From assembly GCA_900549975.1 (NCBI GenBank), contig URQK01000001.1, positions 23,400 to 87,399 of the forward strand: a stretch of DNA of 64,000 nt, read 5' to 3'. The translations under genes and the position numbers were made by a program. The DNA comes from an uncultured Mollicutes bacterium (GTDB taxonomy: Bacteria; Bacillota_I; Bacilli_A; RFN20; CAG-826). Each line of letters starts with the position of its first letter. The stretch's first letter is position 1. Shown here piece after piece: positions 87 through 15,881 of this stretch. The notes below the pieces were generated by a model, which ran no database searches, was not told the origin of the DNA, and saw only the letters and a program-made list of their open reading frames with translations.

Positions 87-1676
87 TTGGCTATTATTAT
101 TGCTACTTCTGCAAGTGGTGCAACAATCGCATCGTGTAAAGCTAAAAATAATTCATATGATAACAATGCATTAGGATTTAAAATAGATGTAGAAAAAGAA
201 TTTGGTGATGTGGTTACTGATTATCCTTATGATCCTGCTTCTATTAAATTTAGCAAAGCTAATAATCCTTGGGCAAAGAAAACCACGGGCGAAATTGAAA
301 AAGCTGTAGGCACTAATAGAAGTGAACGTAGTGATAACGATCGATTTATTGTTTATCAATTTGAAGGCTTCTATGCTGAGGGATATCAAGGAAACTATTC
401 TAAAACTTATGGCTATCTATCGCTTTGGGATGATGGATTATATAATGGTGTTCAAGATAACAAAAACATATTTGGATATTGGTACAACATCGAAGAAGAT
501 GGTTCAGATTGTTTAGTTATGATTGATAATCGTGGAACAAATGCAAATATGATGTGCGTAAAATCAAATTCTAAATTCTATGATTGGACAGCAGATATTA
601 AACTTGATTTCTCATGGGGAACTCGTTCGTTAAAAGTTAATGGATTCTTATATACACCTGCAATTGGTATGTATATAGATACCGGAACGGATGACTTAAC
701 TTATGAATATGGCGATGAAATTGATACAACAAAATGGACAGCAATGCAAGTAAGAAATGATTTACGTGTTGGTGCTGTATTTGATCCAGATCAAACAATT
801 AAATGGTCAATTCCAAATACTAAAAAATATCCAGGAAAGCAAATAGTTAGAGCAAACTGGGATACATTTACTTGGGATACTAAAGTTACAATTGGTGTTG
901 ATCAAGGTACTTATGTACTCGATGCATCAAATGAAGCAGTCAAGAAAACATATCGCTTCGTTGATGGACTAGATACTTCTGGAATATTAGTAAAGCGTAT
1001 TACTGAAACAAAAGAAGAAATTTTAGATACAAGTTTATTAAAGAGCGAATTAGATTTAGTAAATAAAAAAGTTAATGTAATTATGCCTAATAAGACAGTT
1101 CAATCTTATGACATTACACTTGATGATTCAGAAGCATCAAATACAATCACTGGTAAGATTGGCGAAGTCGAAACCAAATACATTGTTAAATCTTTAGATA
1201 CAATGAAAGTAGTCTCAGGCGATAAGACAGTTGATGTTAAAATTGAACTAACAGGATCATCTAAACTTAAAGCAATTGTAATTGGTGAAAAAATTAGCGG
1301 TGATGATGACTTATTTAAAGCATTACCTGCTAAAATTTCAATGGTTGAAAAAGATGGAAACTTAGTAATACCAGATAAGAGATACTTTACAAGTACATCA
1401 AAAGCTAATCCATATTCTCAAAATGGAAATACATACTTTATCTTCGACTTAGCAAATGAAACAGTCGATGTCATCTGGACATTTACATATCAAGGACCAC
1501 AAACTCAAGAAATGAAGTGTACATATACATTATCTGGAGATTTAGCAGATGGTGTTAGAGTAACATTACAATCATGTATTAAAGAGACAAATGGACAATG
1601 GCAATGGTCAAGTAATAAATCCTTTACAATTACAGAATGTGGCATAGATGACTTACCATTTGCACCTACTTTATAA
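87..1676 (+). CDS. Putative surface lipoprotein; 5' end may lie upstream of the window (frame is open back to nt 3; TTG at 87)
   Basis: 529-aa ORF. The N-terminus has a hydrophobic stretch ending in the lipobox-like ASC (LAIIIATSASGATIASC). No stop occurs in frame upstream to the window edge. No recognisable catalytic motifs. Confidence 0.55.
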   Translation: MAIIIATSASGATIASCKAKNNSYDNNALGFKIDVEKEFGDVVTDYPYDPASIKFSKANNPWAKKTTGEIEKAVGTNRSERSDNDRFIVYQFEGFYAEGYQGNYSKTYGYLSLWDDGLYNGVQDNKNIFGYWYNIEEDGSDCLVMIDNRGTNANMMCVKSNSKFYDWTADIKLDFSWGTRSLKVNGFLYTPAIGMYIDTGTDDLTYEYGDEIDTTKWTAMQVRNDLRVGAVFDPDQTIKWSIPNTKKYPGKQIVRANWDTFTWDTKVTIGVDQGTYVLDASNEAVKKTYRFVDGLDTSGILVKRITETKEEILDTSLLKSELDLVNKKVNVIMPNKTVQSYDITLDDSEASNTITGKIGEVETKYIVKSLDTMKVVSGDKTVDVKIELTGSSKLKAIVIGEKISGDDDLFKALPAKISMVEKDGNLVIPDKRYFTSTSKANPYSQNGNTYFIFDLANETVDVIWTFTYQGPQTQEMKCTYTLSGDLADGVRVTLQSCIKETNGQWQWSSNKSFTITECGIDDLPFAPTL

Positions 1677-1704
1677 AAATAAAATTTAAAAGATTTAATT
1701 TTTG

Positions 1705-1736
1705 GAGAACTGGATAAATTCTAGTTCTCTTTTTAT
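1705..1736 (+). terminator. Rho-independent terminator after the first lipoprotein gene
   Basis: GAGAACT ... AGTTCTC stem followed by a T run (tctttttatt). Confidence 0.5.
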
Positions 1737-1755
1737 TATTAAATAAAAACAAAAA

Positions 1756-1800
1756 ATCCACTAAATCACTTTATTTAAGTGAAAATTTGGTGGATATTTT
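1756..1800 (-). terminator. Hairpin plus T run downstream (minus-strand sense) of tRNA-Ala
   Basis: ATCCACTAAAT / ATTTGGTGGAT imperfect inverted repeat with an inner CACTT/AAGTG pair. On the minus strand the hairpin is followed by TTTTTT. Confidence 0.4.
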
Positions 1801-1808
1801 AATTAAAT

Positions 1809-1884
1809 TGGTGGAGCCAACGAGGATCGAACTCGCGACCTCTTCGTTGCGAACGAAGCGCTCTCCCAACTGAGCTATGGCCCC
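1809..1884 (-). tRNA. tRNA-Ala, anticodon CGC
   Basis: The reverse complement reads GGGGCCATAGCTCAGTTGGGAGAGCGCTTCGTTCGCAACGAAGAGGTCGCGAGTTCGATCCTCGTTGGCTCCACCA (76 nt). It folds as a cloverleaf with a 7-bp acceptor stem containing the G3:U70 Ala identity pair, discriminator A73 and an encoded CCA. The anticodon loop is TTCGCAA, giving anticodon CGC. Confidence 0.85.
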
Positions 1885-2141
1885 ATGCATTGATAATTAT
1901 AGTTAATTTAATATCAAAAATAAACTATAATTTTCTCATTTTTTGCATAAAATTTTGAAATATTGCTTTTTTTAGTATTAATGTGAAAGCATTTTCATAT
2001 ATTTTTAAACTTCTACTATTGTTTTTTTGAAAATATAAATGTATTATATTTGCAATTAATCTATAGATTAAAAGAATCTTTTTTTTGAAAATTATAAAGT
2101 ATTTTTAATCTAAAATTGTTCAATTTTTAAAGGAGAAAAAT

Positions 2142-9887: not shown

Positions 9888-10517
9888 ATGGAAAGAAAAA
9901 GTATACTAATTGCCATTGGCGGAGGCTCGGGTTCAGGAAAGACAACTTTATCTGATTATTTAGAAACAATATTCAAAGATGATTTAGTTCGTGTTTCTTA
10001 TGACACCTATTGTAATGATCGTAGTCACTTATCCCCGGAAGAAAGAACTAAAAGCAATTATGATGTTCCCGAATCATATGATGCACCATTATTCAGTAAA
10101 CATTTAAAAGAATTATTGGAAGGCAAAAGTATTCAAAAACCAATTTATGATTTTAAAACCCACTCACGAATCAAAGAAACCCAATTAGTGGAACCTAAGA
10201 AAATTATTATTGTTGAAGGTATTATGATTTATCAAGTGCCTGGTATTCGTGATTTATTAGATTTATCTATTTATGTAGATACTGATGCCGATGTGCGCGT
10301 ATTAAGAAGATTATCGCGTGATGTTAAAGAAAGAGGCCGCACTATTGAATCAGTAATCGACCAATATTTAACCACAGTCAAGCCATGTCATTATAAATAT
10401 ATAGAACCAACAAAAGATGATTGTGATATTGTTTTTATTAATAATGATAATAATGGTTTAGACGAAATTCAAATTGAAAAAGTTATGCGTAGAATTAATG
10501 AGCTTATAAATCGTTAA
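9888..10517 (+). CDS. udk: Uridine kinase
   Basis: P-loop IAIGGGSGSGKTT, IIIVEGIM motif and overall Udk architecture; 209 aa. Confidence 0.85.
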   Translation: MERKSILIAIGGGSGSGKTTLSDYLETIFKDDLVRVSYDTYCNDRSHLSPEERTKSNYDVPESYDAPLFSKHLKELLEGKSIQKPIYDFKTHSRIKETQLVEPKKIIIVEGIMIYQVPGIRDLLDLSIYVDTDADVRVLRRLSRDVKERGRTIESVIDQYLTTVKPCHYKYIEPTKDDCDIVFINNDNNGLDEIQIEKVMRRINELINR

Positions 10518-10689: not shown

Positions 10690-10958
10690 ATAATTAGTTT
10701 ATGAAAAAAATAAAAAAACATTAAAAAAAACACTTTTAAAAAATTGAGCTTTATTATAATAATTATTCTTCTATTTTTGGTGGGTTCATTTTAAGTTTAT
10801 AACAATTTGTTGATAAAGTCTAGTAAAAAATTATGAAAACGATTTTATATAAAAAAGACTATTTTTTTTAGTTTGTTCTATAGTATAATAGAAGTGAACC
10901 CACAACAAAATTTGATAAAAAAGTGGCTTGCAATCGATGTTTTTTTGTAAAAAACATT

Positions 10959-10986
10959 TTGTATAGTAGATAATATCGTGTATAAT
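10959..10986 (+). promoter_or_regulatory. Putative sigma-70 promoter of the phn operon
   Basis: TTGTAT, 16-nt spacer, TATAAT with TG immediately upstream; about 90 nt before the phnD start. Confidence 0.4.
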
Positions 10987-11074
10987 AAATTAGAAGATGG
11001 AAGAGAAGACTATAGTATTAAATCTTCCTAATTCGAAATAGATAAGAACGCGCAAATGTCGCAGGAGGAAATTT

Positions 11075-12169
11075 ATGAAAAAATCTATTTTTACTATGTC
11101 TATGACTGCATTGGTATTATTATGCTTATCATCATGTAACAATGGTAACCTTAATCCTAGTGCTAGCAACAATGGTGCAAAGAAAACAATTAATATCCAA
11201 TTCGTACCATCTAATGACCCAGGAAAGTTAGCTACATTAGCAAGCAAAATGGCTCCAATGCTTGAAAAAATTGAACCAGGATACAAATTCAATATTACAA
11301 CTGGTACTGACTATGCTGCTACAACGCAAGGTTTATTATCAGATCAACTTGATATTGGTTTCTTAACAGCTTCTGGCTATGCTGAAGTTACATTGAAGCA
11401 TCCAGGAAAAGTAGAAGTATTAATGACTTCTGTTCGTAAAGGCTACCAAGTTCAAGAAGATTATAAAACTGAAGCAGATTAAATCAAAGCTATGAACCAA
11501 GAAATCAAAGGATATACTTATCATGGCGAACAATCTACTACAGATGTTAACTGGTACTCTTCACAATTAGTAGTAAGAAATGAATATTATAAAGATGCTA
11601 ATAAAGATGGCAAAATTGATATTCTTGATATGGCTGGTTTAACTATTGGTAGAATGGGAACAACTTCTGGTGCTGGTTATTTAAGACCATTACACTACTT
11701 ACATGAACACGGAATGTCAATGGTTGATGATATTACAGATGCAAAAACTCAAATTAAAGGTAAATATTTCAAATCTGGTTACACTGCAGCTTGTGAAGCT
11801 ATGATGAATGGCGAAATTGCTGGATTCTGGGGCTACACCGATGTTAGATATTCTAACTTCTATTCAAAGACAGATAGTTCACACTATCAAGATAACAAAT
11901 TATTTGAAGATTACAAAGTAGTAGCAATTACAGATGGTATTTATAATGATACAATTTCTGCTCGTTCTAATCTTGACCAAGCAACTAAAGATGCTGTTAA
12001 ACATGCATTCAAAGAATTAGTAAAAGATGGTGACATCAATACTGAAGGCACAGGTGCTTATTATCTTTACAATTTATATTCACACACAGGATATAGTGAT
12101 GCTAAAGATAAAGATTTTGATGGCGAAAGAAGTTTCTACCAATTCTGTGTTGACAACAATTTAATTTAA
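11075..12169 (+). pseudogene. phnD: Phosphonate ABC transporter substrate-binding lipoprotein PhnD, interrupted by a single in-frame TAA at 11480-11482
   Basis: ORFs 11075-11482 and 11492-12169 are in the same frame. Together they reconstruct a PhnD-family protein: lipobox LSSC; N-half KKTINIQFVPS...DYAATTQGLLSDQLDIGFL; C-half YSSQLVV...MGTTSGAGYLRP. Confidence 0.6.
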
Positions 12170-12192: not shown

Positions 12193-12978
12193 ATGATAGT
12201 CTTTGAAAATGTTACAAAGACGTATCCAAATGGATTTACGGCTTTGAAAAATGTAAATTTGACTATCAATGATGGAGATTTTGTTTGTATTATTGGCTTA
12301 TCAGGCGCTGGAAAATCAACAATAATTAGAACTATCAATAAAATGCATCCAATATCTAGCGGTAGATTATTAGTAAATGGAAAAGACATTTCTTATGCAG
12401 AAGGCAAAGACCTCCGCGCAATCCGCAAAAATATTGGTATGATATTCCAATCATTTAACTTAGTAAAACGTTCTAGTGTCTATAAAAATGTTCTCTCAGG
12501 TAGAGTGGGTTATCACTCTACCTTTGAGTGTATTTTTGGCCTATATTCAAAGGAAGAAAAAATGCTTGCCTTACAATCACTTGATAAGCTAGGCATTCTT
12601 GACAAAGCGTTTGTCCGTGCTGATCAATTAAGCGGTGGGCAAATGCAAAGAGTTGCTCTTGCTAGAGCATTAACTCAACAACCATCATTGATATTAGCTG
12701 ATGAACCAGTTGCGTCGCTTGACCCAATTACTACTTTATCAGTTATGGATGACTTTAAAAGAATTAATCAAGAAGAAAAAATTACTATTGTAGCTAATAT
12801 GCACCATGTTGATTTAGCGCTTAAATACGCAACACGCGTTATCGGCATTCGTGCTGGAGAGATTGTTTTTGATGGAAAACCAGAAGAAGTAACAGAAGAA
12901 GCTTTAATAAAAATTTATGGACGCTCATTAAACCAAAATGAAAAATTAGGGGTGGTTGATAATGAAACCACAAAATAA
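12193..12978 (+). CDS. phnC: Phosphonate ABC transporter ATP-binding protein
   Basis: Walker A GLSGAGKST, ABC signature LSGGQMQRVALAR, Walker B ILADEP. PhnC-like N-terminus. Confidence 0.85.
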   Translation: MIVFENVTKTYPNGFTALKNVNLTINDGDFVCIIGLSGAGKSTIIRTINKMHPISSGRLLVNGKDISYAEGKDLRAIRKNIGMIFQSFNLVKRSSVYKNVLSGRVGYHSTFECIFGLYSKEEKMLALQSLDKLGILDKAFVRADQLSGGQMQRVALARALTQQPSLILADEPVASLDPITTLSVMDDFKRINQEEKITIVANMHHVDLALKYATRVIGIRAGEIVFDGKPEEVTEEALIKIYGRSLNQNEKLGVVDNETTK

Positions 12979-13837
12979 TGGCTTTTTCCATCGCTTAACT
13001 CATAAAACAATGGTAGTTAGTGTAGATGAAAATGGTAATCCAACTAAAGTAATTGAAAAAAAACGTTCACTTATTTTGGTATGGATTGGTTTATATGCAC
13101 TTGTTTTTGGTTTATGTTTTATATTTTTACCAATGAACAATAAAGTGCGTTTTGATCAATTAGGTAATATTGTGTCACAATTATTTGTTCCTTCTAAGTG
13201 GTCTCTTAAAACAAGTGAAGCGTGGTGGAATTATTTGTGGACTGTAGCGGTTAGAAAAATTTGGCAAACAGTTGAAATGATATTTGTTGCTACAGTATTT
13301 GGAACACTTTTAGCAGTTCCTTTTTATCTACTTGCAGCTTCTAATATCACAAGAAGTAAGGCGGTTAATCAACTCATTCGTATTTTAGTTAATATTATAC
13401 GTACTATACCTACTTTTGTATTAGCTATTATTGGAGCAATATTTTATGGATATAGTGAAACTGCTGGTGTGTTTGCTATGACTTTATTTACCTTTGGTAT
13501 TATTTTTAAATTAATGTATGAATATATCGAAACTGTGGATATGAATCCATTTGAAGTGGCAATTTCAAATGGTGGAACAAGATTATCTGCGTATGCGTTA
13601 TCTATTCATCCTCAAGTTAATCCAATGTTTATTTCAAATTTTATCTACACATTTGAAATCAACATTCGTGCTTCAGTTGTATTAGGATTCGTTGGTGCTG
13701 GCGGTATCGGTCAATTATTATCAGATGCAATGGAAGCAACACAATATGACAAAATTGGTGCAATTTTGATACCATTATTAGTTGTGGTATTTGTATTACA
13801 ATTAGTTTCAACTTTTACAAGGAGGAAAGCAATTTAG
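12956..13837 (+). CDS. phnE: Phosphonate ABC transporter permease
   Basis: Six TM helices with a PhnE-type EAA-like loop; overlaps the phnC stop. Confidence 0.8.
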   Translation: MIMKPQNNGFFHRLTHKTMVVSVDENGNPTKVIEKKRSLILVWIGLYALVFGLCFIFLPMNNKVRFDQLGNIVSQLFVPSKWSLKTSEAWWNYLWTVAVRKIWQTVEMIFVATVFGTLLAVPFYLLAASNITRSKAVNQLIRILVNIIRTIPTFVLAIIGAIFYGYSETAGVFAMTLFTFGIIFKLMYEYIETVDMNPFEVAISNGGTRLSAYALSIHPQVNPMFISNFIYTFEINIRASVVLGFVGAGGIGQLLSDAMEATQYDKIGAILIPLLVVVFVLQLVSTFTRRKAI

Positions 13838-14731: not shown

Positions 14732-15202
14732 ATGCGTAAATTAATTCTTTTAGCAGGACTTCCTGGAACAGGCAAATCATATTATGCTCAATCGATTCAA
14801 GACGAGAATTGCCATATTATTTCAAGTGATGAAACACGTTTTTCTATTACTCATGATTATCGTATAATCCTTGAAGATATGAATGTTGTTTATGATAAAA
14901 TGATTGATAAAACTAATGAATTATTAGCAACTAATGATAATATTACTATTATTTTAGACTCAACATTCTTAGATGATAAAAGAAGGAACTATTTTTTGGA
15001 TAAAATAAAAGGCGCTGACTACATTCAATTAGTAATGTTAAAAGCAAACATTGATACAATTCTGAGGCGAAATCATAAAAGGCAAGAAGAAAAATGGGTG
15101 CCAGAAGATGTTATATTATCAATGATGGAAAGATATAAAGACCCAAGTTCAGATAATATTTACCGCTACAATTTTATTAAGGTGGTTTATGTAAATGACT
15201 AG
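14732..15202 (+). CDS. P-loop kinase (AAA_33/polynucleotide-kinase-like NTPase)
   Basis: Walker A GLPGTGKSY at the N-terminus, 156 aa. Translationally coupled to the phnE stop. Confidence 0.6.
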   Translation: MRKLILLAGLPGTGKSYYAQSIQDENCHIISSDETRFSITHDYRIILEDMNVVYDKMIDKTNELLATNDNITIILDSTFLDDKRRNYFLDKIKGADYIQLVMLKANIDTILRRNHKRQEEKWVPEDVILSMMERYKDPSSDNIYRYNFIKVVYVND

Positions 15203-15881
15203 TTTAAAATTTTTAGGTAATGGCTCAGCATTTAATTATGATTTAGATAACACAGCAGCGTATTTTAAATATGATAATACATTTTATATATTTGATTGCG
15301 GAGAAAAAATTGCTAGTAAAATTATAAAATATATTGATTTTAGCAAAGAAAATGATGTGATTATTTCTATAACGCATATGCATGGGGATCATATTGGCTC
15401 ACTTGAAGCATTGCTTGTTTATTTAACTATCATAAATCCGGTTCATAGTGTAACTATTTTGTGTTCAAATAAAAACAAAATGATAGCATTTTTAAAATTA
15501 ACAGATTATAACTATGAATTAGTGGATATTATGGAAGATACTATTTATAAAGATAAGAATGTTACTATTGAATCAGTCGAGGCGAAACACATATCGGATA
15601 GTCGCAGTTATTTTGTTTATTCTCCTTTAGAAAAATTCTTTTATTCTGGAGACACATGTCTATTAAATCAGAAAGCAAAACAAATGCTTTTTGCAGGTGA
15701 ATTAGATAACCTGTACCATGAAGTTAGCGATAAAGATTCTAACTTTCATATTGGATTAGATACAATAAGCAAAGAAATACCACTTGAATATCGTAATAGA
15801 GTATTTCTAATGCATTTTGATAGTGATTTGTTAATAAAAAAATGCATTGACGAAGGATTTAACATAGCAAGAGCAATTTAA
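15195..15881 (+). CDS. MBL-fold metallo-hydrolase, PhnP/RNase Z-like phosphodiesterase
   Basis: N-terminal LKFLGNGSAF and an HMHGDHIG (HxHxDH) zinc motif. Overlaps the kinase gene by 8 nt. Confidence 0.6.
   Translation: MTSLKFLGNGSAFNYDLDNTAAYFKYDNTFYIFDCGEKIASKIIKYIDFSKENDVIISITHMHGDHIGSLEALLVYLTIINPVHSVTILCSNKNKMIAFLKLTDYNYELVDIMEDTIYKDKNVTIESVEAKHISDSRSYFVYSPLEKFFYSGDTCLLNQKAKQMLFAGELDNLYHEVSDKDSNFHIGLDTISKEIPLEYRNRVFLMHFDSDLLIKKCIDEGFNIARAI

Follow-up and report, generated by a model that had tools for sequence, protein, structure and literature searches.

A very young nonsense mutation probably disrupts the phnD-like binding-protein gene of a human gut Bacilli strain

A premature stop codon in a PhnD-family gene

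The DNA analyzed here is a 64-kb stretch (the window) of contig URQK01000001.1 from assembly GCA_900549975.1, which represents an uncultured gut bacterium of the Bacilli. It carries an operon for a phn-type importer whose binding-protein gene, phnD, is divided by a TAA codon. Very probably, this codon arose by a genuine nonsense mutation of very recent date (CAA to TAA at Gln136), which makes the gene a phnD null allele in a human gut strain. It is an ordinary strain-level nonsense pseudogene. Coordinates throughout are those of the window, and phnD serves only as a family label, as the protein scores below the cutoffs of both the PhnD equivalog model and TIGR01098.

A sequence-only reading of the window had described two open reading frames (ORFs) that share one frame, are separated by the stop codon plus 9 nucleotides, and together encode one PhnD-family lipoprotein. 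The layout was confirmed from the sequence: the TAA at positions 11480 to 11482 is followed by ATC AAA GCT and then, in the same frame, by the second ORF (Table 1). Joined across the stop, the translation matches Pfam family PF12974 (Phosphonate-bd) from end to end (76.1 bits against a cutoff of 27; profile positions 3 to 242 of 242), and each half alone also exceeds that cutoff (36.3 and 42.1 bits). The N terminus, MKKSIFTMSMTALVLLCLSS-C21, reads in translation as a signal peptide ending in a lipobox, which bears out the assignment to the lipoproteins. A scan of all 64 kb for pairs of long open stretches with a single stop between them identified phnD as the sole split gene; the four other joined cases were all adjacent genes of different families (e.g., CysRS/MgtC and S5/L15).

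The comparison with orthologous phnD genes that had been proposed at the outset shows CAA to be the ancestral codon. A search of a large protein collection retrieved 168 PhnD homologues. The closest of them (P0001, locus L002) is a single protein of 364 amino acids with 98% identity, and its gene has CAA where the window has TAA. At two loci from another sample (L005 and L006), phnD equals that of the window over 1098 nucleotides except for a C at gene nucleotide 406, which restores CAA; these copies additionally carry a 5-bp tandem duplication of their own further on. An intact 364-residue allele (P0132) also belongs to the same type of haplotype. Because an otherwise identical haplotype in L005 and L006 retains CAA, the mutation is very recent, in agreement with the first of the explanations originally offered, a recent nonsense mutation creating a pseudogene.

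The residue that was lost is a conserved one. In an alignment of 76 homologues, which extends down to 39% identity, glutamine occupies position 136 in at least 90% of the sequences. Around the stop, M140, N141, Y149, and G151 are invariant, while Q136, A139, Y147, and Q153 are conserved. The stop had been placed in a lineage-specific insertion. Measured against the Pfam profile, the segment is indeed inserted. Far from being a variable loop, however, it is conserved throughout the subfamily and predicted to be well folded (predicted local distance difference test [pLDDT] score, 94 to 98). AlphaFold2 modeling of P0001, an intact allele (mean pLDDT, 90.9), places residue 136 in a helix spanning residues 133 to 140 with a pLDDT of ∼95, and the insert contributes strands at residues 153 to 158 and 163 to 168. 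The ratio of nonsynonymous to synonymous substitution rates (dN/dS) of phnD between lineages is 0.07 to 0.28, which indicates that the gene is normally maintained.

With the stop in place, ribosomes would terminate at codon 136 and release a mature lipoprotein stub of 115 residues that would be devoid of the conserved ligand-binding and hinge elements. Of lobe 1, the stub (mature residues 22 to 135) retains just the initial strands and helices, and the invariant TSGAGY (residues 197 to 202), NDT, and SHTGY motifs are missing from it. The C-terminal piece begins with MNQEIKGYTYHGEQ and has neither a hydrophobic signal peptide nor a lipobox. A product started at Met140 should be rare, because its start codon has no ribosome-binding site, and, lacking a signal peptide, should remain cytoplasmic. 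The PhnCEE importer would therefore be left without its binding protein. We infer that transport is lost and that relaxed or fluctuating selection lies behind the persistence of the allele.

Transporter knock-outs across the species

Disrupted copies of phnD in public gut assemblies were traced from truncated members of protein clusters to their contigs, and the DNA was aligned. At least nine of the resulting knock-outs are independent (Table 1). The deletion at locus L117, an unambiguous ninth null allele, joins the leader and promoter region to phnD nucleotide 924; phnC and the remaining genes there are intact. Three real knock-outs were found in phnC (K138* and 1-bp deletions at nucleotides 346 and 570), all in strains with an intact phnD, and one in phnE1 (a 1-bp deletion at L007). 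All full copies of the flanking genes at loci of the same species were intact (DUF3737, 25; udk, 26; the kinase-like gene, 26; the metallo-beta-lactamase [MBL]-fold gene, 25), giving 0/102 disrupted. Three apparent disruptions were discarded: the phnE2 truncation P0169 reflects scaffold N runs and not a mutation, the phnE2 truncation P0168 has a longest contig of 970 bp and was presumably cut by the contig end, and the phnC "disruption" at L014 lies on a 1x-coverage contig with foreign sequence that is probably chimeric. At L002, a 1-bp change in phnC is confined to the last six codons.

A metagenome scan anchored on PhnC retrieved only one locus of the same species, and the less biased sample was drawn instead from exact matches to the two most frequent PhnC alleles, both intact. 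Among 20 distinct places with intact PhnC, phnD was broken in 2 (∼10%), against 0/118 for six neighboring genes (Fisher P, ∼0.02; per base, ∼0.04). The allele in the window would count as one among many independent transporter knock-outs segregating in the species, and the importer would be under long-term purifying selection, yet dispensable in the gut at least sometimes. Such frequent loss of a transporter that is of long-term use could stem from selection that is weak or fluctuates, or from occasional positive selection for its loss; the system seems to be dispensable under some conditions or at times selected against.

Selection could also have favored the losses themselves. Knock-outs of phn genes might be positively selected in some hosts, either because a toxic phosphonate or antimetabolite enters through the importer or because the exposed lipoprotein is a target of phages or antibodies; we regard this as possible, if doubtful. 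An equally tentative version treats phnDCEE as a hot spot of convergent, adaptive inactivation in human hosts, with the TAA in the window as one such event instead of a neutral or mildly deleterious variant. At least 13 independent knock-outs (at least nine in phnD, three in phnC, and one in phnE1) set against the intact flanking copies would fit such a history, as would the share of intact-PhnC places in which phnD is broken. Two different knock-outs arose on the same haplotype (that of the window and of L005/L006), and the allele with a deletion at nucleotide 129 recurs in seven assemblies from several BioSamples, which suggests that a null lineage spreads. The long-term constraint on phnD makes plain neutrality less obvious, and knock-outs of phnC, which encodes a cytoplasmic ATPase, suggest that transport is lost and not merely a surface epitope. 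However, the counts come without a genome-wide background rate, ascertainment is uneven among genes, several assemblies may share individuals, and the alleles have not been tied to any host condition. Mutation-selection balance under weak selection would produce the same picture.

Sequencing error, residual function, and switching

A sequencing or assembly error, with CAA as the true codon and an intact gene, appears improbable. Most strains of the species do have an intact 364-residue gene, and the evidence stands at the level of assemblies. However, three further assemblies show this T as well: ENA scaffold_108 (117.6 kb), NCBI GCA_900753675.1, and a Logan contig of run ERR414327. The latter two contigs are identical to the window, and the ENA scaffold differs by one intergenic indel only. 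The two phnD fragments, N-terminal and C-terminal, also occur in exactly this form in the public protein collection, with NCBI, ENA, and Logan as sources. Since these assemblies come from different pipelines and the Logan contig was built directly from the run, an assembler artifact is unlikely. Furthermore, the change is a substitution and not a homopolymer indel, the window holds no other split gene, and the different real phnD knock-outs in other samples point to a biological phenomenon. The sequence-only reading had proposed that intact genes in close relatives would imply an error in this assembly. That rule fails here, as the relatives are mostly intact and yet the T recurs, and other strains have knock-outs of their own.

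Still less probable is that the split gene yields a working binding protein, whether by readthrough or recoding at the TAA or by reinitiation at Met140 with subsequent assembly of the pieces. The gap between stop and ATG is only 9 nucleotides, the independent K138* stop of L001 lies 3 nucleotides from the same ATG, and phnCEE is intact downstream. In addition, circularly permuted relatives (described below) have their chain ends in the loop after residues 139 to 146, so that a break near this point should be structurally tolerable. However, TAA is the dominant true terminator in the window, where it ends 42 of the 60 large genes (15 of them in the context TAAA; TAG ends the other 18) as well as genes for small ribosomal proteins. 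No other in-frame TAA occurs among 18,309 codons of the window, and reassignment of TAA in an alternative code was rejected on these grounds. No suppressor tRNA was found in the 64 kb, the only tRNA there being tRNA-Ala, and neither a recoding structure nor an Rfam element turned up near the stop.

The ATG that follows the stop had been noted to lack a ribosome-binding site, and duplex energies agree: the 18 bases upstream of position 11492 pair with the anti-Shine-Dalgarno sequence at −0.9 kcal/mol, compared with medians of −9.8 at the genuine starts of 52 window genes and −1.5 at ordinary internal methionine codons. Because Met140 is invariant across homologues, the supposed restart codon is merely a conserved internal methionine. 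Without a signal peptide, the C-terminal piece could not get to the outer side of the membrane, on which the stub and the permease are located. Nor is the split conserved: phnD is one ORF in most strains and in all other species examined, and where it is broken in relatives the break lies elsewhere, including frameshifts and a deletion. Taken together, the use of TAA as main terminator, the missing ribosome-binding site, and the missing export signal make readthrough, recoding, and a two-piece protein very unlikely, and the suggestions to this effect in the sequence-only reading were set aside. We give just as little credence to a functional two-piece protein broken near the loop that holds the termini of the permuted relatives.

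Two local explanations for the position of the stop were also set aside. Q136* and the K138* of L001 lie 6 bases apart, just before Met140, but their closeness does not amount to a significant hot spot: in a simulation based on four nonsense alleles and on the 188 changes able to create a stop, a pair fell within two codons in ∼9.5% of cases (P, ∼0.095). The remaining knock-outs are scattered along the gene, and the frameshifts and the deletion could not be rescued by reinitiation. Cytosine methylation at GATC as a hot spot for C-to-T changes would hardly account for the other nonsense changes, which differ in context and type.

Least credible is phase variation, in which this strain would have been caught with a reversible switch in the OFF state, as in many surface lipoproteins of Mollicutes: the protein is a surface lipoprotein of a Mollicutes-like gut Bacilli lineage, OFF alleles are many, and the linker after Cys21 varies in length among strains (354, 364, 366, and 367 residues in total), but the change in the window is a base substitution in the context gcagatCaaatc, away from any repeat. 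The events in other strains comprise substitutions, 1-base deletions in runs of 1 to 5 bases, one 5-bp duplication, and one deletion of 1 kb. None of the knock-outs falls in a long homopolymer or simple-sequence tract, and no invertible element is evident.

Several points nevertheless weigh against a simple null allele. Besides the reliance on assemblies for calling the TAA, the four assemblies with this codon (the window included) probably derive from one sample and hence do not count as separate biological replicates. If tRNA-Gln read through the UAA at a low level, glutamine would be inserted again, and perhaps a trace of full-length protein could result. The genes phnC, phnE1, and phnE2 show no decay in this strain and could still serve some purpose. 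Finally, the enrichment of knock-outs in the phn genes over their flanks rests partly on ascertained loci and is modestly significant in the semi-unbiased subset. A young nonsense mutation that abolishes phnD function remains the explanation that we favor.

Related systems and observations on the locus

The downstream genes phnC, phnE, and phnE had been read as intact and coupled. All three are confirmed to be intact, with family matches for each, and they are tightly packed (Table 1). The first permease scores slightly below the TIGR01097 cutoff, and relatives encode the same 291-residue product. No riboswitch (e.g., for thiamine pyrophosphate [TPP]) or other Rfam element was found in the 385-nucleotide leader of phnD. 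The two genes that follow the permeases, for a 156-residue AAA_33/KTI12-like P-loop kinase and a 228-residue MBL-fold protein, occupy the same position at all related loci examined. The latter protein has sub-threshold matches to Apyc1-type cyclic-nucleotide phosphodiesterases and RNase Z.

Between window positions 9888 and 17118, synonymous divergence from L002 is 0.005 to 0.044 for phnD, phnC, phnE1, phnE2, and the kinase-like gene and 0.13 to 0.36 for udk, the MBL-fold gene, and tgt. The phn block may have been recently exchanged or swept by recombination between strains. At locus L130 (ERZ27256397 k119_33490), a gene for a 560-residue DDE transposase (positions 283 to 1965, minus strand) lies directly 5' of an intact phnD, in the place of udk and DUF3737, which indicates an insertion sequence or a rearrangement beside the operon. 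Within phnD, the linker after Cys21 (window positions 11138 to 11185; NNGNLNPSASNNGAKK) is of low complexity and shows in-frame indels (e.g., at L003, L008, L020, and L113); it is presumably a hypervariable, surface-exposed tether.

The window protein resembles periplasmic binding proteins of ABC importers for phosphonate, phosphite, and hypophosphite, such as Escherichia coli PhnD (PDB entry 3P7I) and Pseudomonas stutzeri PtxB (5O2J) and HtxB (5ME4), in its full-length match to PF12974, its predicted two-lobe type II fold, and the place of its gene immediately 5' of phnC and two phnE genes. When the P0001 model was compared with the PDB by Foldseek, PtxB, HtxB, and PhnD were the best matches (E values of 1.6e-17 to 1e-15; target-normalized TM scores of 0.68 to 0.79). 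A sequence search of the PDB with the PhnD-like protein gave no match, and a profile search gave only weak matches to HtxB and PtxB. In contrast to these three proteins, that of the window is lipid anchored, is ∼100 residues longer, contains the conserved insert of ∼50 residues, has only 12 to 18% sequence identity to the solved structures, and is encoded by a gene that is broken in this strain. Its scores for the models of true PhnD (TIGR03431, 58.2 against 261.1 bits) and of the subfamily (TIGR01098, 91.3 against 112.05 bits) fall below the cutoffs.

The Mycoplasma TPP-binding lipoproteins p37, Cypl, and MG289 (3E78 and 3MYU) are likewise lipoproteins of a phn-like operon in Mollicutes/Bacilli and are larger than classical PhnD. 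They also appear among the Foldseek matches, with E values of ∼1e-12, below PtxB, HtxB, and PhnD. The corresponding profile hidden Markov model, however, matches only the C-terminal part of the window protein (29.8 bits against a cutoff of 225), and the leader of phnD lacks a detectable TPP riboswitch. A further parallel is the cryptic phnE allele of E. coli K-12, in which slippage of an 8-bp repeat in the permease gene is readily reversible. There, too, a phn-type importer is inactivated in some strains and kept in others while the rest of the operon is intact; the present case differs in that a base substitution has struck the binding-protein gene and that unrelated one-off mutations occur in other strains. 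Literature searches on phnD pseudogenes returned nothing relevant.

In more distant uncultured Bacilli, the gene 5' of phnC also encodes the binding protein as one ORF, but with its two parts in exchanged order, a natural circular permutation (Table 1). These proteins have 418 to 458 residues and a lipobox of their own. The homologue of window residues ∼147 to 355 comes first, followed by a linker of ∼20 residues and the homologue of residues ∼28 to 145, and the chain ends right after AMNGE. BLASTP gives two swapped high-scoring segment pairs (E values of 7e-33 and 9e-21). The architecture occurs in at least 25 protein clusters with ∼650 sequences in all. The new termini lie in the loop just after AMNGE and each keep part of it, an arrangement that, from sequence, would be expected of duplication, fusion, and truncation. 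An AlphaFold2 model of a permuted protein was of moderate quality (pLDDT, 78), and the order-dependent Foldseek search gave no significant matches, a result that tells little, given that the chain is permuted and the model mediocre. We found no description of natural circular permutation of PhnD or solute-binding proteins in the literature.

The window is also without TGA stops. TGA ends none of the 60 large genes and none of eight small ribosomal, infA, or secE genes; it is absent in frame from the 18,309 codons and occurs 1282 times out of frame. At the five most closely related loci (L021, L023, L026, L027, and L029), 0/49 ORFs end in TGA, whereas other low-GC relatives use it. This clade may avoid TGA or leave it unassigned, perhaps through loss of release factor 2 or because it is at a stage before reassignment. 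In the RF39/RFN20 gut lineages, TGA has been treated as a stop (PMC8629427, PMC7301438).

Table 1. Features of the phn operon in the window, phnD knock-outs in the species, and loci with permuted PhnD-like proteins
Feature	Location	Strand	Evidence or comment
phnD, disrupted	11075-12169	+	two ORFs in the same frame; 364 aa when intact
5' phnD fragment (residues 1-135 plus premature stop)	11075..11482	+	ORF list; PF12974 profile 2-81, 36.3 bits
Premature TAA, Gln136 (CAA) to stop, C to T at 11480	11480..11482	+	sequence; alignment to relatives
3' phnD fragment (residues 140-364; 225 aa), begins at Met140	11492..12169	+	ORF list; PF12974 profile 92-242, 42.1 bits
Lipoprotein signal peptide, lipobox L-S-S-C (Cys21)	11075..11137	+	translation; Cys21 invariant in 76 homologues
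Subfamily-specific insert of ∼50 aa (residues ∼124-175), holds the stop	11444..11599	+	gap between Pfam-matched halves; conservation; pLDDT 94-98
phnD Shine-Dalgarno sequence AGGAGGA	11063..11069	+	sequence; anti-Shine-Dalgarno duplex −10.3 kcal/mol, typical for window genes
Putative promoter-like site 5' of phnD (TTGTAA, 18 nt, GATAAT)	10945..10974	+	consensus scan, 9/12 matches, weak
phnC, ABC ATPase, intact, 261 aa	12193..12978	+	TIGR02315, 346.7 bits (cutoff 266.1)
phnE-like permease 1 (phnE1), intact, 291 aa; overlaps phnC end	12962..13837	+	TIGR01097, 213 bits (cutoff 216.7); BPD_transp_1
phnE-like permease 2 (phnE2), intact, 296 aa	13839..14729	+	TIGR01097, 226.1 bits (cutoff 216.7)
Two coupled intact genes: kinase-like AAA_33 (156 aa) and MBL fold (228 aa)	14732..15881	+	sub-threshold or general Pfam and NCBIfam matches
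phnD Q136*	this window
phnD K138*	L001
phnD E67*	L003, L004, L124
phnD Q42*	L007
phnD AATCT (5-bp) duplication at nt 458	L005, L006
phnD 1-bp deletion at nt 129	L008-L012, L014, L015		seven assemblies, several BioSamples
phnD 1-bp deletion at nt 116	L013
phnD 1-bp deletion at nt 150	L016
phnD ∼1-kb deletion of leader and nt 1-923	L117:2864-3500		ERZ28615891, SAYO22-1 SAMEA14100528
Permuted PhnD-like loci	L032:3576-4952, L035:3543-4919 (=L043), L036, L089		proteins P0120, P0094, P0231-P0253

For annotation, the two ORFs should be flagged as one disrupted PhnD-family gene and not as two proteins. The presence of the operon alone is a poor ground for inferring a capacity for phosphonate or phosphite uptake. 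The pattern of knock-outs in the population provides a concrete hypothesis for studies of within-host evolution in an abundant uncultured gut lineage.

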